A stretch of 64,000 bases of DNA from a virus. Each line of letters begins with the position of its first letter. The first letter of the stretch is position 1. The notes beneath the pieces are model-generated. The model was given only the letters and a program-made list of their open reading frames with translations, ran no database searches and was not told the origin of the DNA. Position numbers and translations under genes: made by a program. The stretch is from the IMG/VR virus record IMGVR_UViG_3300042549_007727. One strand, given 5' to 3'. Below, one piece after another: positions 5,126-64,000 of this stretch.

Positions 5126-5199
5126 CGAGACTTAGCTCAGCTGGTTAGAGCAAACGGCTCATAACCGTTCGGTCGCGGGTTCAAGTCCCGCAGTCTCGA
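5126..5199 (+). tRNA. tRNA with CAT anticodon (elongator Met or Ile2)
   Basis: Cloverleaf: CGAGACT/AGTCTCG acceptor, AACGG-CTCATAA-CCGTT anticodon arm, TTCAAGT T-loop. C1-G72 is paired, so not an initiator. Confidence 0.93.
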
Positions 5200-5212
5200 C
5201 AGAAGAAAGGTT

Positions 5213-5489: not shown

Positions 5490-5562
5490 CCCCGTGTACT
5501 CCAATGGCAGAGAGAGCCGACTTAAAATCGGTACAGTATCGGTTCGAGTCCGATGGCGGGGA
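5490..5562 (+). tRNA. tRNA-Leu(TAA), short variable arm
   Basis: GCCGA-CTTAAAA-TCGGT anticodon arm, ATCGG-TTCGAGT-CCGAT T arm, CCCCGT/GCGGGG acceptor. Confidence 0.85.
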
Positions 5563-5563
5563 C

Positions 5564-48988: not shown

Positions 48989-50398
48989 ATGGGTAAAAGT
49001 CTTATGGAGCAGCTAGCTCTTCTTTCTGAAGAAGAGCGTTTAGAGGCGCTCTCAGATATTGATCCAGATTCTCTTATATGGGATTGGACTGTCTGGGCTC
49101 GCCCGGAGCAGGTAGCCCCGCCGGGAGTTGATTGGAACATCTGGCTTGTTATGGCAGGTCGTGGTTTTGGTAAGACCCGACTAGCGGCAGAATGGGTTCG
49201 CGAACAGGCAAAGTACACAAACACCGGACAGCGACGTTTTGCACTTGTTGCCCGTACCGCAGCCGACGTACGCGACGTTATTGTTGAAGGTGAGTCGGGA
49301 ATTATTAACGTATCCGCTCCCTCCGAGAGACCTCTCTACGAACCTTCAAAGCGTCGCCTAACTTGGCCTAACGGAAACACTGCCACGCTATTTACCGCGG
49401 ATGAGCCTGACGGTTTGCGTGGTCCTCAGTTCACTCACGCATGGGGTGATGAGATTGCTGCTTGGAGGCAGACCCCTGACGCTGCAGGTATGACCGCCTT
49501 TGATAACCTCCGAGTTGGTACTCGTCTTGGTGCAAACCCGCAGATGGTCGTGACTACCACCCCCAAGCGTGTTCCGCTTCTATACAAACTTATTGAAGAG
49601 TCCAGAACTGACAAAGGTAACGTAATTATTACCAAGGGTTCTACCATGGACAACGCTGGAAACCTTTCGGCCTCATATCTTGACACTATTACCGGCGTTT
49701 ACGAAGGTACAACTCTTGCACGCCAGGAGCTTTATGGAGAGATGCTAGAGGACCTCGAAGGATCTATGTGGAACGAAGAGATGGTTGAAGAAGCTAGACA
49801 TGCTATGTACCCATTCTCCACTCCTCTAAGAGTGATTGGAGTGGACCCTTCTGTTGCTGAAAACCCTCGCGATGAGTGTGGAATTGTAGTTGTTGCATCT
49901 ACTGCAGATTACGATCTATATAAGCGCGAAGCTTGGGTGCTAGAAGACGCGTCTGTCCTTGGATCCCCAGATACTTGGGCACGTAAAGTCGTTGAGATGG
50001 CACGCAAGTGGGGCTGCCCAGTTGTAGCCGAAGTAAACCAAGGTGGAGCCCTAGTTAGAAACGCAATTCTTTCAATCGACCCGACTATTAAAGTTCTAGA
50101 AGTCCACTCAAAGCACGGTAAGCAGCTCCGCGCTGAGCCAATCGTCCTTGCTTACGAGCAAAAGCGCGTTCATCACGTTGGATATCTCCAAGATTTAGAG
50201 TCTCAAATGTATTCTTGGATTCCTGGAGAAGGAAAATCTCCTGACCGTATCGATGCACTAGTTCACGCACTTACTGCTTTGCTAATTAAACCACCACCAG
50301 GATTTAGTGGAGGAAAAATTAGAGCAAAATCCCTCAGCGACCGTAAAATACCGGGAGTATCGCCCTCTAGAAGCTCAAAAATATTTAGGGTCAGATAG
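48989..50398 (+). CDS. terL: Terminase large subunit
   Basis: AGRGFGKT Walker A, LRGPQF..AW.DE Walker B, TTTP, GVDP, SPDR.DA nuclease motifs. Confidence 0.95.
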   Translation: MGKSLMEQLALLSEEERLEALSDIDPDSLIWDWTVWARPEQVAPPGVDWNIWLVMAGRGFGKTRLAAEWVREQAKYTNTGQRRFALVARTAADVRDVIVEGESGIINVSAPSERPLYEPSKRRLTWPNGNTATLFTADEPDGLRGPQFTHAWGDEIAAWRQTPDAAGMTAFDNLRVGTRLGANPQMVVTTTPKRVPLLYKLIEESRTDKGNVIITKGSTMDNAGNLSASYLDTITGVYEGTTLARQELYGEMLEDLEGSMWNEEMVEEARHAMYPFSTPLRVIGVDPSVAENPRDECGIVVVASTADYDLYKREAWVLEDASVLGSPDTWARKVVEMARKWGCPVVAEVNQGGALVRNAILSIDPTIKVLEVHSKHGKQLRAEPIVLAYEQKRVHHVGYLQDLESQMYSWIPGEGKSPDRIDALVHALTALLIKPPPGFSGGKIRAKSLSDRKIPGVSPSRSSKIFRVR

Positions 50399-51087: not shown

Positions 51088-52836
51088 TTGGGTATTTTTA
51101 AGAAAGAGCCTCAGAAGCAAACTAGAACATCTAGTGGTGCTCCTCGCGCGACTGCTCCAAAGAATGCAACCAGAGTTGCCCCTGGAGTTTCTATAGACTC
51201 TTTTGGAGTCGTCTACGCCGAAGCACAAAACTTCAACACACCTAGACCTCTTACTGCTGCCGCGGCTCAGGTAAATCTAAATGACAAAGGTGAAGCAGAG
51301 CAGTTTAAATCTCGTAGACAATCAGCATCTTCATCTTGGCAGACAGAGGCCTGGGAATACTACGATGCTATCGGAGAAGTTAAATATGCTTTCAACCTAG
51401 TTGCGTCTGTTGTTTCTCGTATTCGTCTGTACGCAGCTGCAGTCCAAAATCCAGCTGAAGCCCCAGCTCCAATTCTTTCTGTAGACAAAGTGGATGAGAG
51501 ACTAGCTGCCGCTGCACAACGCGCACTAGAAAGACTAGATTCCGCATTCGGTGGTCAGGCAGGTCTTTTGAAAGACGCTGCACTAAATCTTCAAGTGACT
51601 GGTGAGTGCTACTTAGTTCAGATGCCAGAGAGACTTGGATCGGGTCTTCCAGAAAGCTGGGACATTCGTTCAGTTGATGAGCTTCAGGTTGACTCTAAAG
51701 GCAACTACGTAATTAATCAGAGTAGAGACGTCGGTAATGGAAATAGCATGATGTCTTCTCGCAATAATAAAGACATAATTAAACTTCCAAATTCTGCGTT
51801 TGTCGGAAGAATTTGGCGAGCACACCCTCGCTACACGCAAGAGTCGGACTCTTCACTACGCGGTCTACTAGATCTTTGCGCTGAGCTACTACTTCTAAAC
51901 CGCACCTTCCGTGCAACTGCACGTTCACGCTTGAACGCTGGTGCTCTTTACTTGCCAGACGGTCTTTCAGTAGCTGCGTCTCCAGACCCAGACTACCCAT
52001 ACGACGAAGACGGTAACTACAACGAGCAGTACAACCCGGAAGAGTCCGCTGACGACTTCGAAGATCAGCTAATCGACGCGATGACTACTCCGATTAAGGA
52101 TGAGGACTCAGCGTCTGCTGTTGTTCCACTGATTATTCGTGGTCCTGCAGAACTTGGTGACAAGATTAAGCAGTTCAAGTTCGAGCGTTCATTCGATCCA
52201 GCGCTTTCTGAAAGAAGCGACCGCGTACTAGAGCGAATCATGCAGGGTCTAGACGTTCCTAAGGACGTTGTAACTGGCCTAGCAAACGTTAAGTACTCTA
52301 ACGCTCTACAGATTGACGAAGCACTCTACAAGGCACACATCGAGCCTCTAATGCTTTTGATTGTTGACGCTCTTACTGTTATGTACTTGCGCCCATATCT
52401 AATTGCTAACGGCTACCCAGAAGAACAAGTAAAAAACATTTGCGTTTGGTATGACCCGTCTCTAGTTGCTACCCGCAATGACCGCGCAGCTGATGCTGAC
52501 TCTGGTTTTGAAAAGATGGCAGTTAGCTATGACACATGGCGCAGAGCTCATGGATTCTCCGAGTCCGATGCCCCAGACCCAACCGAGTTTGCACTAAGAC
52601 TTGTACTACAAAAGGGAATGATCACACCTGAGCTTACAGAGTCTATGCTCGCTAGTATTTCTCCAGAAATAATGGGAAAGATTAGAGATCAGGCTATGCA
52701 AAATAGCGGAGCAGCTATTCCGCCCGAAATTGACCAAATTCTTAGCGGAGATACAGTCTCTCCAACGCCGGAAGCAGATGCTGCCGAAGCTCCACCAGCC
52801 GAGCCCGCGGCACCACTAGCAGAACCAGAGGTATAG
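51088..52836 (+). CDS. Portal protein
   Basis: Position after terL; WQ.EAW.YYD.IGE, RIWR.HP, SAVVP..IRGP motifs of actinophage portals. Confidence 0.8.
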   Translation: MGIFKKEPQKQTRTSSGAPRATAPKNATRVAPGVSIDSFGVVYAEAQNFNTPRPLTAAAAQVNLNDKGEAEQFKSRRQSASSSWQTEAWEYYDAIGEVKYAFNLVASVVSRIRLYAAAVQNPAEAPAPILSVDKVDERLAAAAQRALERLDSAFGGQAGLLKDAALNLQVTGECYLVQMPERLGSGLPESWDIRSVDELQVDSKGNYVINQSRDVGNGNSMMSSRNNKDIIKLPNSAFVGRIWRAHPRYTQESDSSLRGLLDLCAELLLLNRTFRATARSRLNAGALYLPDGLSVAASPDPDYPYDEDGNYNEQYNPEESADDFEDQLIDAMTTPIKDEDSASAVVPLIIRGPAELGDKIKQFKFERSFDPALSERSDRVLERIMQGLDVPKDVVTGLANVKYSNALQIDEALYKAHIEPLMLLIVDALTVMYLRPYLIANGYPEEQVKNICVWYDPSLVATRNDRAADADSGFEKMAVSYDTWRRAHGFSESDAPDPTEFALRLVLQKGMITPELTESMLASISPEIMGKIRDQAMQNSGAAIPPEIDQILSGDTVSPTPEADAAEAPPAEPAAPLAEPEV

Positions 52837-52839
52837 AAA

Positions 52840-53295
52840 ATGCATTACGACAAAACAGAGATGGCTAAAAAACTGGCAGAGCTACTGTCTGAAGTAGTTA
52901 CTGCAAAGTTCATAATGCAGGGCTACCACTGGAACGTACTTGGCCCAGACTTCGGTGAGTACCACGAGTTCTTTGGCGAACTTTACGAGGACCTAGAGTC
53001 ATCTGTTGACCCAATCGCAGAGAATATTCTTAAGATTGGTTACCCAGCTCCGTACTTACTGTCCGACTTTTGCGAACTGTCAAAGATTCAAGAAGCTAGA
53101 CAAGATGGTTCATCTTCTAGATTCCTACTAGAGTCCGCTCTAAGAGTAAACCAGTGCGTACTTGATTCTTTGATGGAGGCTTTTGTTTGTGCAGAGTCCT
53201 GCAGCGAGCAAGGTCTTATGGACTTTTTAGCGGGACGTATTGACACCCACAAAAAGTGGAACTGGCAAATTAAGGCCTTCCTAGGAGTTCGCTAA
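52840..53295 (+). CDS. dps: Dps/ferritin-like DNA-protecting protein
   Basis: HWNV.GP.F...HEFF.ELY......D..AE; HKK..W. Confidence 0.88.
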   Translation: MHYDKTEMAKKLAELLSEVVTAKFIMQGYHWNVLGPDFGEYHEFFGELYEDLESSVDPIAENILKIGYPAPYLLSDFCELSKIQEARQDGSSSRFLLESALRVNQCVLDSLMEAFVCAESCSEQGLMDFLAGRIDTHKKWNWQIKAFLGVR

Positions 53296-54599
53296 TGTCT
53301 GAGTATCTACAAAGCGTTCTTAAAGCTGCAGGTGGCCATGCCGCTCCTGTAGAAAACCTAAAAGAAAAAGACATTCGTGCTTCCCTAGAGGCAGCCGGAA
53401 TGCTTGTACCAGAAGAGCAAGACCTTGCCGATGCGCTACTAGAGATTGTAGAGAAGCATGGAAAATTTAACGACGACAACACTGGCGTTTGGGCTGGCTA
53501 TACTTCTGCTAAAGAGAATGCAGAAAACGCAGAGATTGGCGTTAAGTGCGGCAACTGTGTTTTCTGGCAAGCACCTAACGGATGTCAGATTATTGTTGCT
53601 GAGGTAGAGGAAGGCGGCCTATGTCGTTTTGCTGTGCTCCCAGACGGATCTGTAACTCCTGGTTCCTCTACTCCTAGCGAGGAAGATGAATCCAAAGAGC
53701 CTGTAGAAAAATATTTCTCTAAGGAGCCAAAGCTAATTCAAGACCTACTAAAGTCTGCAATTAGCGAAACAGAGGACGAGTACTCAGACGAGTATCTAGA
53801 TATCTATGACCTAACTCCAACACAAGAGACCGTCGATTCTTCAAACTTCAAAGAAGCTGCTGACTATGAAAAGCCAGTAGTAGTTTACAGAGATGACTCT
53901 GGAATGTATCTTGTTGATGGACACCACAGGTGCGCTACTAAAGTAAAAAACGGTGGCAGTGGGATTAAGGCAAAAGTATATAAACAGCTATCGCTAATAG
54001 CGGCAGCCGAGTCTGAAGCTAACCTTAAAAAAGATGCAGATGACCCTTGCTGGTCCGGATACGTCCAGGTTGGAATGAAAAAGAAGAACGGTAAGCGCGT
54101 ACCTAACTGCGTACCGTCAGCTGCCACAATTAACATGCTTGTAGATGACTTTAACTCTCAGTTTGGGTCCGCTCGTCATATTACTAAAGAAGCTGCCTAT
54201 TCAGTAGCCCGAAGTGCCCTTGAAAGGTACAGCGACTTGTCTGACGAGGAAATATACTCTGCCATCCTGTGGGAGCTACACGCTTTCGCTGAGTACGCTA
54301 CTTCAGGCTCTGTGGAAGACGTCTCAGATGACTTCTCCGAGTACGCAGGGTTGACAGCTGAAGGCCACCCAGGCAGGCAGTCTTCCATAGTGGCAGCTGC
54401 AACATGGATTGCCGGTGCTTCCGAGCTGTCCGAATCTTCTAGAGATGCAATAGCAAATGCCTTTAATGACGAGCTAGACCAAGTAGATTCTTTGCATGCA
54501 GCAACTAGAGTCCGTGCTCTTATTTCTAGTGGAGCGCTATCTGATAGCACTCTAGCTCAAATAAAAGCCTTACCAGAAAAATACCCTAAAGTCAGCTAA
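53295..54599 (+). CDS. Mosaic head-region protein: HiPIP-like Cys cluster, ParB/Srx-like domain and CW.GY..VG..K..VPNCVP motif
   Basis: CGNC-x8-C-x11-C; LTPTQ...LVDGHHR; CWSGYVQVGMKKKNGKRVPNCVP. Confidence 0.6.
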   Translation: MSEYLQSVLKAAGGHAAPVENLKEKDIRASLEAAGMLVPEEQDLADALLEIVEKHGKFNDDNTGVWAGYTSAKENAENAEIGVKCGNCVFWQAPNGCQIIVAEVEEGGLCRFAVLPDGSVTPGSSTPSEEDESKEPVEKYFSKEPKLIQDLLKSAISETEDEYSDEYLDIYDLTPTQETVDSSNFKEAADYEKPVVVYRDDSGMYLVDGHHRCATKVKNGGSGIKAKVYKQLSLIAAAESEANLKKDADDPCWSGYVQVGMKKKNGKRVPNCVPSAATINMLVDDFNSQFGSARHITKEAAYSVARSALERYSDLSDEEIYSAILWELHAFAEYATSGSVEDVSDDFSEYAGLTAEGHPGRQSSIVAAATWIAGASELSESSRDAIANAFNDELDQVDSLHAATRVRALISSGALSDSTLAQIKALPEKYPKVS

Positions 54600-54656: not shown

Positions 54657-57600
54657 ATGCTCGACGGCAAAAACCCTGAATTCGAACCGATTATTTCTAG
54701 TATCGGATTTAACGATGGAGCTAACAAAGGCTTCTGGAGAATCCAGCCACGTGACGACGAAGGTCAGTGGATCGAGATGGGCGCGGACGTATTGTTCCGC
54801 TTTCGTACCGGAAGCGGTAACTTAGTTGTTGCTACTGAGCGTGGAGTTTATGTAGGACCTGGCGGTCGTCCTGGAATGGCCCGAGTCTTAATTTCAAAAG
54901 ACACCGAGTCTGGACTAAAGGCTGGCGTCTATCAAGTAGAGTCAAGAAACTTGCAGCAGTTCAAGGCAATTATTCCAAACGCTAAATCTAAAGCGGGTGC
55001 GCCAGCGGCTAGAAAAGACAAGTTCGGTAAGCCAGTAAGAACTCTAGAAGATTCCAAACTACCAGCGCTACAAGATTTGCTTTCTGGTTCTCAAGAAATT
55101 ACAGAAGAAGATCGTCGTCTAGCTCAGGGTGATCTAACTCCAGAAGAGCGCGAAGCCGAGCAGGATGGAAGACAGAAGTCTCCAGTTGCAGATTTGCCAG
55201 CTGGTTTCGAATCTGAAAACCCAGAGGAAGTAAAGAAACTTCTCCGTGAGTCAGGTGTTGATCCAGACGAGTTTGACAAAAATACTAGCCCTAGTTTTGA
55301 ACAAGATCCAGAGCTAGCAAAGAAGGCTCAGGAAGCTACTAAAGGCCAACTACTAAGAAAAGAAAAGCCTACAGCTTATGGTCGCGGCAACACTAAAGAC
55401 TTCTCTGAGCTACCAGACGGCACCGTTTTAGATGAATATCAGAGAGCTCAGTTCTACCCATCCCTCGACAGCTACACCGGACCGTTTGGCCCAGTGTGGC
55501 GTCAAATAATTAAAAAAGATGGTAAATGGTTTTTACGCGGTAAAGATGGGAAACCAAAAGGTGCTGCACTAAAAAGAGCAGACTTAATTGCCAGACTCAA
55601 TAGCGGAACTTTAGCTGACACCGGTGCTGGCTCTAAGATCGATGAAAATGGAAATCAAGTCGCCGCTTGGGCAGACGAAGTCGGTCAGCTAACTCCTTCA
55701 GAGATAGCTAACTCCGACCCGGCCGATGATGTAGTTAAAGACTTAATGGCAGATGTGGCTTTTGACGGCGACACTACTCCAGATCTAGATTCAGTTCTTA
55801 AAAAGCAGGAAGCTTTAATATCTTTTAGAGAAACCGCTAAGACTCAAAAAGTCCCTTTTGATCTTGACCGTGGAGATATTGTTTTAGGTGAAGACGGATC
55901 AGAAAAAACAATTCTAGATGTTGAATTAGGAAACGCTGCCACCGGAGTTCCAGCTAAGGTTAGAGTACAGAACTCTGACGGAAGCATCGAAGAGCTTTCC
56001 GTAAGCATGAGGGACAAATTAAATATTGCAACTGGACGGCGTGGACAGATAAAGCGTCCGCAAGCCCCGGCCTCTAGACCCGAAGCACCTACTCCGGAAG
56101 TAACTGCCCCGGAGGCCCCGAGAGTAGATCCTGAAACTGTAGAGCCTGGAGAGATGGCCCCTGAAGACGGTTTAACTGTTGTCATGACCCCAGATGGTCT
56201 AGCCCCGGCCAACTTCCCGCCTGAAGATCGACTAGATGACGGCTCTAACTTTGATCTCCCTACGCTAACAGACGAAGAGTTGGCTGCAGCTCGAGGAATG
56301 AGCTTGTCACCTCTTCTAGATCCTGATGGCACTCCTGCAAAATACGTTGACGAAAATGGCAATCTTGTAGACGCAGAAGATCCTTTTGCGATGTTAGCTG
56401 CTCTTGCTAAGGCGTTCCCTAACGCTAAATTTGCTCCTGACGGCTCACTAATTTTGCACCGCCAAGTAGATACAAAGAGCGGAAAGATTTTTGAGCTCCG
56501 AGCCAGCAACTCCGGTAAGAGGGCTATCGTATACTCCTTCAGGTTCTACAATCCTGCAAACCCTGAAGACTATGTAGAGTATCAGCACAAAGACGATAGG
56601 CACTCGGTAACTGCACTATTTAGCGAGGCAAACGGTCCCGAAGGGCTATTGGACAGACTGCTCGGTAGGGTAGATCGAAAAGGAAAAAATTGGGGCCTAC
56701 CGGAAAACTTTAAATTCGGTAACACTAGGTATCAAAAATCTGACAGCTTATTTAAAAGATCCAGATGGTTTAGGTCTGGTACTGGTGACCGCAAAAAAAT
56801 GGAAGAAATTGGTGACAACGCCGTTCGTCTTGCTCAAGGTAGAGCCGCAGTTCTAGAAAAAGAAACCAAGAGAATTAAAAACAGCGCTATCCCGTCGCTA
56901 TGGGAGGCATTTGATGAACTATTTAAGTCGGGCCCAACAAGCGAAGAGCGAGATGTAGAGCTTAAAGACATGTTCTACCAAACCCTATACGGTGTCTTTG
57001 GAAGAATTCCACTTGGCGAAAAGTCTCATGCAAACGCTAGAAAAGCTATTCGTTCAGAATTTAGACGAAAGTTTCCTACTGCCAGCAAAAAAATGGAGCG
57101 CGCTTTTAACGGCTACGTAACTTCTGCGTCTGAGCGTATGCGCGGAATCTACAGAGGAACTGATCCTCAGGTTAGATCTATTAGATATGCATCTAAAGAT
57201 AGAACAAGAACTATTGAACGAGGCATGACTGTAGAGTACACCAACAACGTTGGGCAAACTTCTATAGTCAAGGTCACTGATTTAGTCGAGAACACTACTT
57301 CTAACCCCAACGATAGGGACTCGTACGACTACGGCGACAATGTTATTGTTACAGATGCTAACGGCCGGAAGATAAGAATAAATGCTATCAAGCTAAAAAT
57401 CATGCTGTCTCAGGGCACCCCTCTTACCGCATACAGACCTAATCTTCTAGGTGAAGAGCTGCGCCAGGCTAGAATTGACAGTGGACTTGCAGAGGCACCT
57501 AGCACTTCTCGACCTAGAAGAATTCCAGGTGCTGGCACTGTAATATCAGATCCGGCACCGCCTCCAATGCTTGTCGATGACTTTGTTGTAGGTGAGATGC

Positions 57601-57767
57601 TCTACAGTAAGTCAAATGGCGCTCCTCTTGGAATAATTAAAGCAATCAGACCGACTACTTCTCGTAATGGCACTCAGGGGCTAGCGTTCCTATACACATC
57701 GCCTGACGGTACCGAAAACCAGGTTGCTTACGCTTTAGGTACGGAAGTAACACCAAAAAAAGTTTAG
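54657..57767 (+). CDS. Large head-region (putative virion-internal) protein
   Basis: 1036 aa; N-terminal QPRDDEGQW motif; ends at an A7 slippery site. Confidence 0.7.
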   Translation: MLDGKNPEFEPIISSIGFNDGANKGFWRIQPRDDEGQWIEMGADVLFRFRTGSGNLVVATERGVYVGPGGRPGMARVLISKDTESGLKAGVYQVESRNLQQFKAIIPNAKSKAGAPAARKDKFGKPVRTLEDSKLPALQDLLSGSQEITEEDRRLAQGDLTPEEREAEQDGRQKSPVADLPAGFESENPEEVKKLLRESGVDPDEFDKNTSPSFEQDPELAKKAQEATKGQLLRKEKPTAYGRGNTKDFSELPDGTVLDEYQRAQFYPSLDSYTGPFGPVWRQIIKKDGKWFLRGKDGKPKGAALKRADLIARLNSGTLADTGAGSKIDENGNQVAAWADEVGQLTPSEIANSDPADDVVKDLMADVAFDGDTTPDLDSVLKKQEALISFRETAKTQKVPFDLDRGDIVLGEDGSEKTILDVELGNAATGVPAKVRVQNSDGSIEELSVSMRDKLNIATGRRGQIKRPQAPASRPEAPTPEVTAPEAPRVDPETVEPGEMAPEDGLTVVMTPDGLAPANFPPEDRLDDGSNFDLPTLTDEELAAARGMSLSPLLDPDGTPAKYVDENGNLVDAEDPFAMLAALAKAFPNAKFAPDGSLILHRQVDTKSGKIFELRASNSGKRAIVYSFRFYNPANPEDYVEYQHKDDRHSVTALFSEANGPEGLLDRLLGRVDRKGKNWGLPENFKFGNTRYQKSDSLFKRSRWFRSGTGDRKKMEEIGDNAVRLAQGRAAVLEKETKRIKNSAIPSLWEAFDELFKSGPTSEERDVELKDMFYQTLYGVFGRIPLGEKSHANARKAIRSEFRRKFPTASKKMERAFNGYVTSASERMRGIYRGTDPQVRSIRYASKDRTRTIERGMTVEYTNNVGQTSIVKVTDLVENTTSNPNDRDSYDYGDNVIVTDANGRKIRINAIKLKIMLSQGTPLTAYRPNLLGEELRQARIDSGLAEAPSTSRPRRIPGAGTVISDPAPPPMLVDDFVVGEMLYSKSNGAPLGIIKAIRPTTSRNGTQGLAFLYTSPDGTENQVAYALGTEVTPKKV

Positions 57768-59914
57768 GCCCCTCTCAGGGGCTCATCTCATTCAGAGAAG
57801 TACAAGTAAATCCTGACTCGGACGTCGAGTTTGATTTACCTGATTGGGAAGACGTCCCTTCTGAAGTTAGAGCCCTACCAAATGCAGTCATCCCTGAGTT
57901 TATAGATTCTAAAGCTGTAAGGGCCCTACCAGAGTTTGCAAACTTAAGTAGATATGGTGGAGCTACTTATGAAGCTAACCTAGAAGCAGCTGCAAAAAGA
58001 GCATACCTACTGCGCGATGAGATGCACCGAAGAGCGATGCAAATCTCGAGTTTCCCGGCTAGAGACCTTCTTGGCACCGGTTATCAGCTAGATAAAAACT
58101 CTATTTCCCTAGGCGAAGAAGTTCCAGCCTCTAGCATTTCAATCCTAAGAAATGCGGCGTTTGACTCGCAAGACTTAAGTTTTGCTCGCGCTGTGGTAAA
58201 AATTGCTGGAGCAAAAAATCCCAGTTCAAATTTTTACAATGAGCAATTTGAAAAAAGTTTAGCGTTTTTTGTCCAGTTCCTTAGGTCAGACGACCCGAAT
58301 CTCACGATTGACGAAACTGTAGACGGTATCCTTGAGCGAGGGGTAAAATTTACACCTAGTTCGGGCTCGGAGAGTGTTTCGCCTTTTGGATCCATTCGAG
58401 TGCCTTTCAAGGTTACAAGAACTGAACAAACTAAAAACGGGTTCATAACTCCTTCGGTAGATATGTCTCCTTATAGGGCTTCTGTAGGAGTTTTAAATAA
58501 TTTTTATTCAAATAATTTAACTCCAACCGGCCTCAGGCCTGAAAAGACTTCGTTAGTCATTAGCGCAACTAACGAATTGGCCTCAGCTGAGTACACAAGA
58601 GTAACTACTTTGGTTAAAAAAGACGGCTTCTCGGGGGTTCAGGGAGTCAACATAGCTACAAACACGTACGGCAACGTTGTGCCTATGACTAATGAAAATG
58701 AATCTCTAGACCTTATAGCGTCTACAGTCACAAATAATACGATTATTATCAACCACGAAAGCGCTTCTAAAACACCGTCTGCTTTCAGGATAGATCCTAT
58801 AGTTGAGACAGTTCTACATGAGTACGGCCACACAGTTGAAAGCAATGTTTTGGGCGTCACCTGGGGGTGGAGCAACAACTCAAGCACTGAAGCCTATGCT
58901 GAAGTCAAGGCTAGAAAAGTTTCAGAGTACGGTGAAAACAACATTCGTGAGCACTTTGCCGAAAGTTTTGCTAAGTACCTGGGCTCAGGGCAGGCTTCTA
59001 AAGAATTTAGAGATTTCTTAGAAAACCAAGTTGGAATAAAAGAACTAAGCTTAGAGACCCTTTTGCCAAAAATTTTCCAAAATGATAATTTTGTAGACGG
59101 ACTAGAAAAATACTTAAACGAAAACGCGGATTTGGGCGGGTACACCGTAAAGATGACTTCAAAGGGTAATAACACAAAAAATGCAGATCTAAGGACCCTA
59201 TTAAATAGAAAAGGAAGTAGTAGGCATCTTGGCGTAACTCTATCGTGGGAGGCAAGCGTACTAGATTCCCAGGGTCGGGATACTGGAGGATCTGGAATGT
59301 CTAGAGCTCTAAAAGTAGATCCAAATACTGGCGAAATTACAGTCAGCCATCTATCTTTTAAGCTTGGTGACAGCGTTCAAGGTCTCGGCCTGGGGGAAAA
59401 GATCACAAAAGCAGCGGTAGAATACTATAAATCTATAGGAGCAGACAGAATAAAAACATCTGCAGCTGCCACCGATAGCTACCCAAACGGCGCTTACATG
59501 TGGGCTCTTCAAGGGTTTGATTTTGCAGATTCAGCAGAAAGAGATATGTATCACAAGAGGGTTAAGCTTGCTTATGCTGCTTTAAGCGAATATGCTGCAG
59601 ATAGCGAAAGATACAATTCTATGGACTTTATGGAAGTCAGCAGAGAAATTGCACGAAAAACAAACTCTGACCAAACCTCGCTGCTACAGCTAATCGCTGA
59701 ACTAAGAAGAAACGGTTGGGTAATCAGTAATGATCTTCTCAACCAACTAAAGTCAATAGCGGACAAAAACGGAGTAGAAGTTACAGCTAAACTTATTGCA
59801 GAAATAGGCAGAGGCAATAAAAAAGACAAGGGAAAGAAGTTTTCTACCCTTGGTAGGCACATTATGGTGGCTACTGCGAGAGGCTGGAGTGCAGTTATGG
59901 AGCTGAAGAATTGA
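57761..59914 (+). CDS. -1 frame extension or downstream ORF carrying a zincin metallopeptidase and a GNAT-like domain
   Basis: Frame is open from 57707 with no ATG/GTG/TTG from 57755 until 58022. Motifs: HEYGH...E.FAESF and QGLGLG...GAY.WA..GFDF. Confidence 0.65.
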   Translation, partial: SLGPSQGLISFREVQVNPDSDVEFDLPDWEDVPSEVRALPNAVIPEFIDSKAVRALPEFANLSRYGGATYEANLEAAAKRAYLLRDEMHRRAMQISSFPARDLLGTGYQLDKNSISLGEEVPASSISILRNAAFDSQDLSFARAVVKIAGAKNPSSNFYNEQFEKSLAFFVQFLRSDDPNLTIDETVDGILERGVKFTPSSGSESVSPFGSIRVPFKVTRTEQTKNGFITPSVDMSPYRASVGVLNNFYSNNLTPTGLRPEKTSLVISATNELASAEYTRVTTLVKKDGFSGVQGVNIATNTYGNVVPMTNENESLDLIASTVTNNTIIINHESASKTPSAFRIDPIVETVLHEYGHTVESNVLGVTWGWSNNSSTEAYAEVKARKVSEYGENNIREHFAESFAKYLGSGQASKEFRDFLENQVGIKELSLETLLPKIFQNDNFVDGLEKYLNENADLGGYTVKMTSKGNNTKNADLRTLLNRKGSSRHLGVTLSWEASVLDSQGRDTGGSGMSRALKVDPNTGEITVSHLSFKLGDSVQGLGLGEKITKAAVEYYKSIGADRIKTSAAATDSYPNGAYMWALQGFDFADSAERDMYHKRVKLAYAALSEYAADSERYNSMDFMEVSREIARKTNSDQTSLLQLIAELRRNGWVISNDLLNQLKSIADKNGVEVTAKLIAEIGRGNKKDKGKKFSTLGRHIMVATARGWSAVMELKN

Positions 59915-60261
59915 ACGAATTAAGCGAATATAGAGACTTATACTTTAATTTTATATCGACTAGGCAGCTACCAGACGATATTGAAGAGTGGCCCGAGGCA
60001 GATCAAGAAGAGTTTTATGCCCTGTCAGATGAGCTCTCTGCTAAGTACCGTAAGGCAGAAGAGGAGCGTCTAGCACGTCCTCTAGATAAGCAAGAGCCTG
60101 AAGGCTTCTACATGATAAACATCACCCTAGAGACTGATGACGGTCCTATATATCAGAAGCTGGACATCAGGACCTTACCGCTAGAAAAGCTCTCGTCGCT
60201 GTGCGCTACTTTCCCCCAGTACAACGACTACTACTTTAAAAAAGCACTAAACATACAATAA
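59911..60261 (+). CDS. Small acidic protein coupled to the effector-like ORF
   Basis: TTGA overlap with the upstream stop. Confidence 0.6.
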   Translation: MNELSEYRDLYFNFISTRQLPDDIEEWPEADQEEFYALSDELSAKYRKAEEERLARPLDKQEPEGFYMINITLETDDGPIYQKLDIRTLPLEKLSSLCATFPQYNDYYFKKALNIQ

Positions 60262-60726: not shown

Positions 60727-63700
60727 ATGTCCGATGCTCGTATGTATACAATCCCAGGTGGAGTTCAGGCCGAAGCAAAAAAAGCTCTTGCATGGCGTAA
60801 AGAGTACAAGCGCGGTGGTACACCTGTTGGATTGAATACTGCACGCACTCTTGCTAAGGGCGGACAGATTGGCATTGAGAAAATTCGTCACATTGCTAAA
60901 TACTTCCCTCGTCACGAAGTTGATAAAAAGGGTAAGGGCTGGGCACCAGGCGAAGACAAGTTTCCTTCTAACGGTCGTATTGCATGGGCACTCTGGGGCG
61001 GAGACGCTGGACAGCGTTGGGCATCTGCAATTGTAGAACGTGTAAATAAAAAAGAATCTACCACTGCTTCTGCTGGCATATACGGTGTAGAAGATTTACA
61101 GCCAGAGAGCGAATTAAACGCTTTCAAAATGGCGCATGAATTAGACCCGAACGTTGGTCCAGAGTTTATGTGCCGAGTTCGTCTAGACAACTCTGGAATC
61201 GACAGACTATACAAAATAGACATTGATGGTCAGATTTATGTCTGGGATGGTTCCGTTTGGGACAACATGGGAGACGTCGATGGAGATGTCTATCTCTATG
61301 ACTCAGAGCTAGATAATCCAGACGATTTAGTAAAGAAGACCCATGTTTTGGTGGACCCTTCTTCTGCTGTAGTTATCTCTGCATTCCTACAAGAGCGCCC
61401 TTTCACTCCAGTACTTCTAGAGGAGATTGACCCTGAGGAAACTCAGATGATGTACGACGCTCTAGCTGAAGAAGATTTTGACTTCATAGACAGAGTTATA
61501 ACTTCTGCCGGTGTCCCTCTTTCAGGGGAAGGCGACGGTGTCTACACCGAAGACGAGCGTTCAGAGAATGCATCAAAGCAGGTAAGAGACGCTACTGGAA
61601 GATTTGCTACTGTAGGTCAGAGAGTGGCCGTGGGCGGAGACATACAAAGAGGCTCTGGAACTATAACCAAACTAGACGCAAAAAATGGGTTAGTCGACGT
61701 TAAACTAGACAGTGGAAAAACTGTAACTATTGATAGCAAATTCAGCCAGCCACTAAAAAATATCCCTGGCCCTATAGCAACACCTAAACTTCAAGATGTA
61801 CCTTTAGATTTGTCCGGCATAATTGGGGAACCTAGAACACCAATTAATATGCCAAAGGCACACCTTCCGGGCTCGCTGCCCCCTATGACTTCAGACGAGC
61901 TTCAACTTATGCTTGACGACTTTCCTAGTTATGTCAGACGCATGCGTCAGTCCTACAAACCTTACGATAAGGCGGACAAAGATAGGGTGCAAAAGAGATG
62001 GGGCTCAGACGTAGCTCAAGAGGCGTCTATATTAGCTTCGGCTGAGAAAGAGGAAGCTCTAACCCCAGAGACTACAGATGTTCCTGCTAAATACTTAGCC
62101 ATAGTATCTCCAGACGACCTTGAAGCGGTTATGGACTTAGTAGCAATAGTACCTGCGTCTAAATCATCTACCGAGCCTACTACTTATGTCAGAGAAGACG
62201 AGAAGTGGGTACCAAATCCTCAAATTCTGCGCGATCTAAAGTCAGCTTCGCCACCACCGGTTGCAGCTCTAACTGACAAAGATATCTTGAACGATGTTCT
62301 CTTGCAGGTTGATGGCAAAGCTCCAGTTGTTGCAACTGGGTTGCCATTCTTCTTGTTCTGGGAAAAAGTTGTAGAGCCAATTCTGGCTGCTGGTGGACTA
62401 GACCGTAACCGAGGCAATGCCGAAGAACTTCGACGCTACTGGACATCCGGTAAGGGTGCTGCCAAGATCCGCTGGGGTACTCCCGGAGACTGGACCCGCT
62501 GCGTCCGCAACCTCTCTAAGTACATGGGCCCTCGTGCGAAGGGCTACTGCCAGCTTCGCCACAAGGATGCAACTGGTGTATACACCGGGAGCAAATTAAA
62601 CCCTGGTAAGAAAGATAAGTCTTTTAGTACTTTGACTAACTTGTACGTTTCAGAAGAAGCGTTTGATGAGACTATGATTCAAAGATCTAGTCAATCAGCA
62701 GCAGCTAAAGATGCTCGAGAGAAAATTGGACTAGTTGCATCCATTAAAACTGGTAAAGGCTCAAGCTTCACAATTCCAATGCTAGTTCCAGAAGAAGTAG
62801 AGTCTGGAGACGGTAGGAAGTTCCGTAAGGGCTCTATCTCGCTGCGAGACCTGCCAGTCCCTCTACTTTGGCAGATAAAAACTGGATCAGGGCACGATGG
62901 CTCTGTAGTAGTTGGAAGAATTAACACCATAGAAAGAATTGAAGGCGGGCTAGGAAATGCGTCAGGAGTATTTGACGACGGCCCGTATGGAAAAGAAGCA
63001 GAGCGTCTTGTTAGAAACGGGTTCCTTCGCGGTGTATCCGTTGACCTAGATCAGTTTGAGGCAAAAGAAGATAAAAAGCCTAAATCTGAACTTGCAGATG
63101 GCGATGACGAGCAAGAAATCGGTAAAGACAAACTCACTATAAATAAGGCACGCGTAATGGCTGCTACAATTGTAGCTAAGCCGGCATTCCAAGAATGCTC
63201 TATTTTACTTAATGCCGAGGGGGATCAGGAGGAAAACATGACCCCACAAGATGGCGTATATGAAGAGTCTGTCACAGACTTTACTGACGTTGAGCCGCTA
63301 CTAGCTTCAGGATTTCTAGACTCAGAGATACCTGTACTACCACCACAAGAGTGGTTTGAAGACCCTAAGCTAACTAAGCCAACCCCTCTAACTGTAGACC
63401 CAAGCGGTCGCATCTACGGACACATTGCAGCATGGCACGTAAACCACATTGGTATGCCTCGCTCAACTCGTCCACCGCGCTCTCGTAGCAAGTACGCATA
63501 CTTCCACACTGGAGTAGTTAAGACTGATGCAGGCAAGGATGTTCCAGTTGGACAGCTAACTCTTGCTGGCGGTCACGCAGACCTACACGCTAGCGCATCT
63601 CAGGCTGCTAAGCACTACGACGACACAGCTTCTGCAATCGCAGACGTACATGCCGGAGAAGATGAGTTTGGTATCTACGTATGCGGCTCACTGCGTCCAG

Positions 63701-64000
63701 ATGCAAGCGAGATGCAGATCCGTGCACTACGTGCTTCTGCCCCTTCGGGTGACTGGAGACCAATCAACGGCGCTCTAGAGCTTGTTGCAGTTTGTCAGGT
63801 TAACGTTCCAGGATTCCCTATCGCTCGTGCGCTAGTTGCCTCTGGAAAGATTATGGCTTTGGTTGCTGCTGGTGCTAACTACATGGCAATTCTTAAGAGT
63901 GAGCACGTAGAGCACTTTGCGACTAGGGCGCTTCTACTTTCGCAGCTTGCATCAACCTCTCCAGACCTTAAAGGCAGAGTTCGTACTGCTAAAAAAGCTG
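60727..64000 (+). CDS. Capsid maturation protease / multidomain head polyprotein, 3' truncated
   Basis: ATG 60727 with AGGAG RBS; missing from the ORF track, consistent with no stop before the window end. N-terminal RHEVDKKG..PSNGRIAWALWGG; KIRWGTPGDWTRC; GDGR.F..G....R..P.PL..Q protease block; C-terminal GHIAAW...YAYFHTG...HYDDT...SGDWR...VNVPGFP. Confidence 0.8.
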   Translation, partial: MSDARMYTIPGGVQAEAKKALAWRKEYKRGGTPVGLNTARTLAKGGQIGIEKIRHIAKYFPRHEVDKKGKGWAPGEDKFPSNGRIAWALWGGDAGQRWASAIVERVNKKESTTASAGIYGVEDLQPESELNAFKMAHELDPNVGPEFMCRVRLDNSGIDRLYKIDIDGQIYVWDGSVWDNMGDVDGDVYLYDSELDNPDDLVKKTHVLVDPSSAVVISAFLQERPFTPVLLEEIDPEETQMMYDALAEEDFDFIDRVITSAGVPLSGEGDGVYTEDERSENASKQVRDATGRFATVGQRVAVGGDIQRGSGTITKLDAKNGLVDVKLDSGKTVTIDSKFSQPLKNIPGPIATPKLQDVPLDLSGIIGEPRTPINMPKAHLPGSLPPMTSDELQLMLDDFPSYVRRMRQSYKPYDKADKDRVQKRWGSDVAQEASILASAEKEEALTPETTDVPAKYLAIVSPDDLEAVMDLVAIVPASKSSTEPTTYVREDEKWVPNPQILRDLKSASPPPVAALTDKDILNDVLLQVDGKAPVVATGLPFFLFWEKVVEPILAAGGLDRNRGNAEELRRYWTSGKGAAKIRWGTPGDWTRCVRNLSKYMGPRAKGYCQLRHKDATGVYTGSKLNPGKKDKSFSTLTNLYVSEEAFDETMIQRSSQSAAAKDAREKIGLVASIKTGKGSSFTIPMLVPEEVESGDGRKFRKGSISLRDLPVPLLWQIKTGSGHDGSVVVGRINTIERIEGGLGNASGVFDDGPYGKEAERLVRNGFLRGVSVDLDQFEAKEDKKPKSELADGDDEQEIGKDKLTINKARVMAATIVAKPAFQECSILLNAEGDQEENMTPQDGVYEESVTDFTDVEPLLASGFLDSEIPVLPPQEWFEDPKLTKPTPLTVDPSGRIYGHIAAWHVNHIGMPRSTRPPRSRSKYAYFHTGVVKTDAGKDVPVGQLTLAGGHADLHASASQAAKHYDDTASAIADVHAGEDEFGIYVCGSLRPDASEMQIRALRASAPSGDWRPINGALELVAVCQVNVPGFPIARALVASGKIMALVAAGANYMAILKSEHVEHFATRALLLSQLASTSPDLKGRVRTAKKA

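Follow-up and report, generated by a model that had tools for sequence, protein, structure and literature searches.

In this study, we analyzed a stretch of 64,000 nucleotides of viral DNA (the window; IMG/VR record IMGVR_UViG_3300042549_007727) and found a site of probable programmed -1 ribosomal frameshifting (PRF) at the 3' end of a large gene in its head module, a reading to which we give a probability of roughly 0.8. An initial annotation had proposed that a -1 shift on a run of seven adenines (A7) fuses an open reading frame (ORF) of 1036 amino acids (aa) to an extension with zincin metallopeptidase and GNAT-like acetyltransferase domains. Our analyses uphold this proposal: the site is conserved among relatives, the linker behind it carries the marks of coding in the -1 frame, and homologues that lack the site are fused in frame. 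The locus combines an in-phase heptamer, a 3' structure, a start-less -1 ORF under coding selection, and phylogenetic conservation with site-less fused homologues, the features by which programmed frameshifting is recognized.

Organization of the Junction

All elements of the junction lie on the plus strand. The upstream 0-frame ORF (P0001, the carrier; 54657..57767; 1036 aa) ends ACA CCA AAA AAA GTT TAG. The first A of the run at 57755..57761 is the third base of the CCA codon, so that the slippery heptamer A AAA AAA, read against the 0 frame (CC-A AAA AAA-G), is in X XXY YYZ phase, and the 0-frame stop codon TAG (57765..57767), which ends the short product, stands one codon past it. After a spacer of 5 nt from A7 comes a hairpin, GGCCCCU-CUC-AGGGGCU (57767..57783), a putative stimulator with 7 bp including one G.U pair. 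Its minimum free energy is -11.8 kcal/mol (z-score -2.9), only 2 of 200 shuffled sequences folded as well, and it ranks in the top 0.4% of 1743 windows of 30 nt across both ORFs.

An open -1 frame extends from 57707 to 59914 and reads SLGPSQGLISFREVQV. From the slip onward the extension has 717 codons and a TGA (57761..59914) and comprises a linker, a helical or mixed domain, a zincin-like region, and a GNAT-like domain with a helical insert. The linker (57761..58021) consists of 87 codons of the -1 frame without any ATG, GTG or TTG; the first such codon is the ATG at 58022. The predicted trans-frame product has 1035 + 717 = 1752 aa with the junction ...TPKK-SLGPSQG..., and from this long form the tryptic peptide SLGPSQGLISFR is predicted. 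Every coordinate that the initial annotation gave for the A7 run, the hairpin, the -1 ORF and the start-less stretch proved correct.

A7 runs by themselves are unremarkable in this DNA (18 observed in the window against 31.5 expected), and the case therefore rests on the combination of elements and on its conservation; a combination kept across distant relatives is not explained by chance. The carrier ORF itself contains two other A7 runs (56793-56799 and 57087-57093, in the context AAA AAA ATG GA); they are codon-aligned and not in slip phase. The second is kept by one relative (L001), and neither is kept by the other related loci checked.

In addition to the hairpin, a candidate second and larger RNA structure, weakly supported, may lie 3' of it (57786..57850). 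Folds of 96 nt at this place gave z-scores of -3.8 and -4.2, and RNAalifold reported several one-sided and three two-sided compensatory changes, which come from few independent lineages. The candidate structure includes the block TCAGAGAAGT, which is invariant at the nucleotide level, synonymous positions included, in seven aligned sequences (five of them distinct) from both clades, down to about 37% protein identity. Pairing of this block with the hairpin loop in a pseudoknot was considered and found unsupported, the loops being too different between lineages. Upstream of the A-run, the T-E-V codons of three distant relatives spell GGAGGU or GAGGU 7 nt before the run (L007:4983-4988, L008:1727-1731, L011:6671-6675), which resembles the Shine-Dalgarno-like stimulator upstream of the dnaX site; the window has a weaker GGAAGU at this place and L002-L004 have none.

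Conservation of the Site Among Relatives

Eight homologues of the extension at 66-96% identity were obtained from other metagenomes. In all eight, the two genes had been called separately and stand in the -1 relation, and in the five relatives with DNA the sequence from CACC-A7-G through the stop codon and the hairpin is kept, the flanks having diverged. Compared with the window, L004 and L005 have TAA as the stop codon, an outer stem pair changed from G.U to A-U, and a different loop. Further loci came from alignment-based scans of IMG/VR viral contigs; a scan of viral contigs with a single extension protein and a scan of metagenome contigs with an alignment both returned nothing.

Across 11 independent loci from metagenomes or uncultivated virus genomes (UViG), 8 distinct junction sequences were found, each with CC-A7-G, a 0-frame stop one codon later and a GC-rich stem. 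The length of the run and its codon phase are identical in 11 of 11 frameshift-type loci, it is the sole A-run conserved among them, and the 0-frame stop is TAG or TAA at the same place in every frameshift-type relative. Identities range from 66-96% for L001-L005 through 53% for L011 to 38% for L015, 35-38% for L007-L009 and 31-37% for L017 and L028. The more divergent loci (L007, L008, L009, L011, L015, L017 and L028) have CC-A7-G, TAG or TAA one codon on, and a GC-rich stem of 6-9 bp with folding energies of -11.5 to -16.4 kcal/mol. Because a MAFFT structural alignment of the hairpins across all lineages put the stems out of register, each hairpin was folded singly. The stem is kept in all eight distinct junction sequences, changes in the 5' arm maintain pairing (G.U to A-U, C-G to U.G), and the loops differ.

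The extensions reached after A7 are of three kinds. First, the window type carries zincin-like and GNAT-like domains. Second, in L015 the match to the window extension is confined to its linker and zincin part (E 1e-19). Third, L017 and L028 have an extension of 263 aa that is unrelated to that of the window. Since the cargo differs behind the same site, the signal is kept where the C-terminal domains differ; conservation of the slippery site and stem in relatives with other C-terminal domains was a check that the initial annotation had named beforehand, and it came out in favor of the proposal.

The same loci bear on the suspicion that the junction is an artefact or a sign of decay, that is, a homopolymer sequencing or assembly error concealing a true A8, or a fixed frameshift mutation in a gene being lost. 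Homopolymer runs are indeed error-prone in some sequencing chemistries. However, the eleven loci stem from different samples, projects and assemblers (Logan, ENA, JGI, IMG/VR) and at 31-96% identity all have A7 with the same frame relation, a random error would not bring a co-conserved stop codon and hairpin, and both ORFs are intact and under purifying selection, which speaks against decay. The A8 assembly error, which the initial annotation had itself raised against its proposal, is ruled out by these independent assemblies, and we regard artefact or decay as extremely improbable.

Coding Phase of the Linker

If the extension is reached only by frameshifting, the A-run should mark a switch of coding phase, with the 0 frame before it and the -1 frame behind it. 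In the 261 nt from the slip to ATG 58022 (five sequences), variable sites are distributed over the first, second and third codon positions of the -1 frame as 21/7/52. Read in this frame, 42 linker codons varied silently only and 18 with replacement; the other two frames gave 4-6 silent. In the 100 codons before the slip, variation follows this pattern too, but in the 0 frame, and the coding phase therefore changes at the A-run. The extension protein is conserved from residue 1 even in the clade at 37% identity. These substitution patterns indicate that, beginning with the first post-slip codon, purifying selection acts on the linker in the -1 frame, and the linker appears to be translated only by ribosomes that enter from the upstream ORF.

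These data also speak to a reading of the locus as two separate genes, in which the downstream gene would have a start of its own, either ATG 58022 or a non-canonical codon, with the A-run and the hairpin incidental and the latter, for example, a weak terminator or attenuator. All gene callers did divide the locus in two, and the stop codon directly precedes the hairpin. On the other side, two genes would leave unexplained why 87 start-less codons are under purifying selection in the -1 frame and, at 37% overall identity, are still conserved. Nor is the ATG kept: L004 is without its equivalent, and in the distant frameshift-type loci, where the -1 ORF runs for 261-710 codons past the 0-frame stop, the first possible start comes 38-97 codons past that stop. 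Moreover, ATG 58022 has no spaced Shine-Dalgarno sequence, whereas the neighbouring genes have one, no U-tract follows the hairpin in the window, and some homologues are encoded as single ORFs. Independent initiation is accordingly very unlikely in our judgment.

In-Frame Homologues and a Second Heptamer

Homologues that are single ORFs and lack the signal are a classic comparative signature of recoding. One of them, P0015 (52% identity; its DNA is L010), is a single ORF of 1773 aa that continues directly into the homologue of the linker, and its junction DNA has neither an A-run nor a GCCCC/GGGGC stem. Four other loci (L016, L018, L020 and L024) remain in frame for about 370 aa beyond the site, which reads GGA CCT AAG/AAT or GGC CCT AAG; folding at this position (-1.7 to -3.5 kcal/mol) is at background level and there is neither an A-run nor a GC-rich stem. 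That such in-frame relatives exist shows that the family can do without the short form and that a state with the long form only is viable.

In more distant relatives, the homologous position holds another heptamer, C CCA AAA, in the context GC CCA AAA GCN TAR (L029:7510-7524, L031:6226-6240, L032:7474-7488). The stop codon again comes one codon after the heptamer and is followed by start-less -1 ORFs of at least 198 codons in L029, 501 in L031 and at least 656 in L032, with strong stems directly past the stop in L031 and L032. The extension of L032 matches the DEDD exonuclease model RNase_T, and that of L029 has nearly the same reading.

This second heptamer bears on the question of whether the shift occurs in translation or in transcription. 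In bacteria and phages, slippage is known to occur at homopolymeric A runs of about 7-9 (PMC5009743); RNA polymerase could add one A on A7, and the resulting A8 mRNAs would encode the identical 1752-aa fusion, so that the protein product would be the same. The A-run, exactly 7 in 11 of 11 loci, is of the known slippage length. However, C CCA AAA has four A only, too short for polymerase slippage and fitting tandem tRNA slippage, which favors ribosomal over transcriptional slippage. The conserved hairpin 3' of the run stands at ribosomal spacing and is not yet transcribed while the polymerase is on the run, and the codon phase of the run is conserved. In addition, the non-conserved A7 runs at 56793 and 57087, in another phase, are tolerated in the carrier ORF, which would be costly if A7 slipped often. 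We therefore hold polymerase slippage to be unlikely as the source of the long form, and the shift is probably ribosomal rather than transcriptional.

Several points weigh against a programmed ribosomal frameshift and keep our estimate below certainty. In Escherichia coli, A AAA AAG shifts more readily than A AAA AAA (PMC5009743), and a run of seven has the length at which some transcriptional slippage can occur. The window's clade has no conserved Shine-Dalgarno-like stimulator upstream of the site. The junction variants share ancestry and are thus not fully independent. Regarding the domains proposed for the extension, the zincin fold was not recovered: residues 333-411 of the model have a predicted local distance difference test (pLDDT) score below 50, the GNAT domain dominating the fold searches.

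Proposed Mechanism

Under programmed frameshifting, most ribosomes would read CCA AAA AAA GTT and stop at TAG, giving the carrier of 1036 aa. A fraction of ribosomes would pause at the GC-rich hairpin 5 nt downstream, where the two tRNA-Lys would slip back by one base on A AAA AAA; these ribosomes would go on to read the 87-codon start-less linker as part of the 717-aa extension and yield the protein of 1752 aa. The short and long forms would presumably be made at a set ratio. Across the family, the junction could act as a socket for cargo, which would be zincin plus GNAT, zincin alone, a domain of 263 aa, or, via C CCA AAA, a DEDD exonuclease, other members having their cargo fused in frame. 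On the basis of gene position and analogy, the carrier may bring this cargo into the capsid, to be delivered along with the DNA or to serve in processing within the head, as polyvalent proteins have been proposed to do.

The Carrier Protein

The carrier consists of an N-terminal module of about 200 aa and a conserved C-terminal module (residues ~350-1035) that ends ...TPKKV directly before the stop. A phmmer search of P0001 against 1.84 billion representatives returned 113 relatives, many of which end exactly at ...PKK followed by A, V, E or D and the stop. The N-terminal module (P0001 residues 8-210; 54680-55290) recurs at the N-terminus of many proteins of 1400-2600 aa, and UvrD-type helicase domains were found in two of four scanned proteins that share it (both about 2600 aa); the module may serve very large phage proteins as a shared leader for capsid targeting or assembly. 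The idea that the N-terminal 248 aa of the carrier share motifs with a giant polyprotein encoded downstream was discarded, BLASTP giving no significant similarity.

The initial annotation had referred to MuF-type phage proteins, which carry toxin domains; our searches did not bear out a MuF assignment for the carrier. Searches of Pfam (E up to 0.1) and of PHROG (E up to 0.01) matched no family, and there was no match to Phage_Mu_F/MuF. The whole-protein model (pLDDT 64.7) showed only small SH3/Tudor/KOW-like beta-barrels and helices, with no clear PDB or BFVD match; the Foldseek matches in the PDB were rejected as evidence of fold, since they were spurious long alignments (RNA polymerase beta, TM-score about 0.06) and small barrels. 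A search of the C-terminal module in the ESM Atlas gave no usable match. Because the protein belongs to no Pfam or PHROG family and matches no fold beyond small beta-barrels, the MuF label is unsupported.

In architecture and position, the carrier family rather resembles the polyvalent proteins (PMC5512222). The best BFVD match, although weak, is gp75 of Gordonia phage Sixama, a post-portal protein of 1285 aa annotated as ADP-ribosyltransferase, which has the same genomic position, and the relative P0023 contains ArdC-N plus MPTase-PolyVal. The large post-portal architecture, the domains of P0023 and the match to Sixama gp75 together suggest polyvalent-like behavior. Polyvalent proteins are delimited by at least two effector-type domains in a head or early-delivery context, and the predicted trans-frame product would have two, zincin-like and GNAT-like, at a position between portal and capsid.

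Domains of the Extension

The zincin-like metallopeptidase region (58736..59050, plus strand) contains HEYGH at 58817-58831 and EHFAE at 58949-58963. H353, E354, Y, G and H357, as well as E397, H, F, A and E401, are invariant in 10 sequences at 37-96% identity. Against the ATLF hidden Markov model (HMM), the window extension scored weakly (E 0.0066; 16.6 bits, below the cut-off of 27.4), and the L015 extension scored 26.6 bits against Peptidase_Mx1, above its cut-off of 25.6; no match to the MPTase-PolyVal model itself was found. The invariant motifs and the weak HMM match point to a zincin-like metallopeptidase.

The C-terminal part of the extension (residues ~446-717; 59096..59911, plus strand) is predicted to have a GNAT fold, with motif A, QGLGLG, at 59378-59395. 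Foldseek matched about 97 aa of it to Naa50, NatD and others (probability 1.0, root mean square deviation ~3.5 A), and in a wide VIA-align search nearly all of the top 50 matches over model range 446-717 were GNAT/HAT acetyltransferases with moderate Z of 8.0-9.4. The acetyl-CoA motif A (Q/R-x-x-G-x-G/A) is present, with Q540, G541, G543, L544 and G545 invariant. At the sequence level the signals were weak: the best E-value for Pfam Acetyltransf_1 was 0.028, with matches in three of eight members, and a profile search of the extension against PDB sequences gave no match at E up to 1. Three repeats in P0011, a protein that itself has a faint Acetyltransf_1 match, are homologous to the GNAT-like domain (E 4e-14). 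From the modeled fold, assignment as a GNAT-like acetyltransferase seems probable. P0011 (L006:6153-11510) is a protein of 1785 aa from an unrelated phage, encoded two genes after a Mu-type portal, and contains ADP-ribosyltransferase domains and three tandem GNAT-like copies.

Genome and Head-Module Context

The head module runs in the order large terminase (48989-50398), portal (51088-52836), a Dps/ferritin-like gene of 151 aa and a variable gene with a weak match to a ParB-like nuclease (ParBc_2; the two at 52840-54599), the carrier gene P0001, the extension ORF, two small genes and a polyprotein. The carrier gene is the third after the portal, and the synteny of portal, Dps and ParB-like genes ... 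protease/capsid polyprotein is conserved in relatives. The giant polyprotein (60727-63999) has more than 1090 aa here, where it runs off the window, and 1393-1435 aa or more in relatives; its residues ~560-1062 match prohead-protease, portal-labelled and virion-structural PHROGs, and it looks like a fused scaffold/protease/capsid gene. The Dps/ferritin-like and ParB-like pair is unusual for a head module, and its products may be packaged proteins. Of the related loci that extend this far upstream, all except one have a ferritin-sized gene (about 151-171 aa) in the same position.

The extension is followed directly by an ORF of 116 aa (59911-60261) whose TTG start and the extension's TGA share 4 nt (TTGA), an arrangement suggestive of translational coupling. 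This ORF or its C-terminal half is conserved behind both frameshift-type and in-frame relatives. We had considered it as an immunity gene specific for the cargo and rejected this as improbable, since the ORF or its C-terminal half also follows other or in-frame cargo. The phage encodes tRNA-Met (CAT; 5126-5200) and tRNA-Leu (TAA; 5490-5563), and no tRNA-Lys was found within the 64,000 nt.

The source is an uncultured freshwater actinobacterial phage. The nearest cultured relatives of its portal are in Actinomycetia phage DSL-LC01 from lake water (73.6%) and then in large Microbacterium and Arthrobacter phages; DSL-LC01 is without the carrier gene. A DNA search with 54657-59914 against 50,697 phage records gave no match, nor did tblastn with P0001 against the same records, and the gene is in no cultured relative.

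Comparison With Known Systems

Other recoding systems share features with this site. In the gamma/tau system of E. coli dnaX, a lysine-codon heptamer, slipping tRNA-Lys, a GC-rich stem-loop 5-6 nt downstream, an adjoining stop codon and products with a shared N-terminus are likewise found. In contrast, the dnaX heptamer is A AAA AAG and is accompanied by an upstream Shine-Dalgarno-like element, whereas here it is A AAA AAA and no such element is conserved in the window's clade; the dnaX shift gives the shorter product and the shift here would give the longer one (+717 aa), and the gene families are unrelated. Among phages, the lambda G/GT tail assembly chaperone, T7 gene 10A/10B and the major head protein of Lactobacillus phage A2 similarly involve a shift to the -1 frame close to the 3' end of a late structural-operon gene, with a major short and a minor long form (here predicted) and an arrangement that is kept while the protein drifts. 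Unlike these, the gene here encodes a post-portal protein of about 1000 aa of no known family, and its extension is not a structural or chaperone part but very large, enzyme-like and exchangeable between relatives.

With respect to its products, the locus resembles polyvalent proteins (PMC5512222), MuF toxins (PMC5576092), Sixama gp75 and the MuF-VIP2 protein of Microbacterium phage Percival, all of them large portal- or head-adjacent proteins with a conserved N-terminal part and variable C-terminal domains of effector type. The zincin metallopeptidase (MPTase) is the hub domain of polyvalent proteins, in which GNAT, ART, ArdC-N and nucleases are found as well (PMC5512222). In the polyvalent, MuF and actinophage fusions the ORF is continuous, whereas here recoding would join the cargo in many members; the carrier also differs from the MuF polymorphic toxins (PMC5576092) in having no MuF HMM match. 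DdrB of phage P1 and the virion RNA polymerase of phage N4 likewise have a zincin HEXXH domain on a large head-associated protein, and Iyer et al. propose that the MPTase acts in autoprocessing or as an effector (PMC5512222). In those proteins, however, the MPTase is always in frame, and there is no detectable sequence relationship beyond the motif.

Frameshifting is mentioned nowhere in the papers on polyvalent proteins (PMC5512222) and MuF toxins (PMC5576092), and in the PRFect paper predicted MuF-like/VIP2 joins appear only among the false positives. We found no description of the carrier family or of the frameshift site in the literature, and because no homologue exists in the phage records searched, no deposited genome annotates this frameshift. 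The mechanism appears to be standard -1 frameshifting.

Significance

The conserved programmed frameshifts known from tailed phages are mainly those of tail assembly chaperones, with a few in capsid genes. The site described here would add a third, phylogenetically broad case, in a gene class linked to the conflict between phage and host, the large post-portal proteins with effector domains. It would explain the start-less orphan zincin/GNAT gene that automatic annotation leaves at this locus, and in this phage group both ORFs should be joined as a coding sequence with ribosomal slippage. In addition, with two heptamer types, several stem variants and in-frame controls, the family offers a natural series for the study of frameshift signals in Actinobacteria.

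The finding also suggests that the dose of a virion-borne enzyme may be settable at the level of translation. We tentatively propose, as a possibility somewhat short of even odds, that the recoding signal (A AAA AAA or C CCA AAA with stop codon and stem) is a conserved socket for exchangeable cargo, by which the phage sets through translation alone how many of the packaged carrier copies bear an effector. If this is true, the family would represent a recoding-regulated delivery of polyvalent or polymorphic effectors, a mode so far undescribed.

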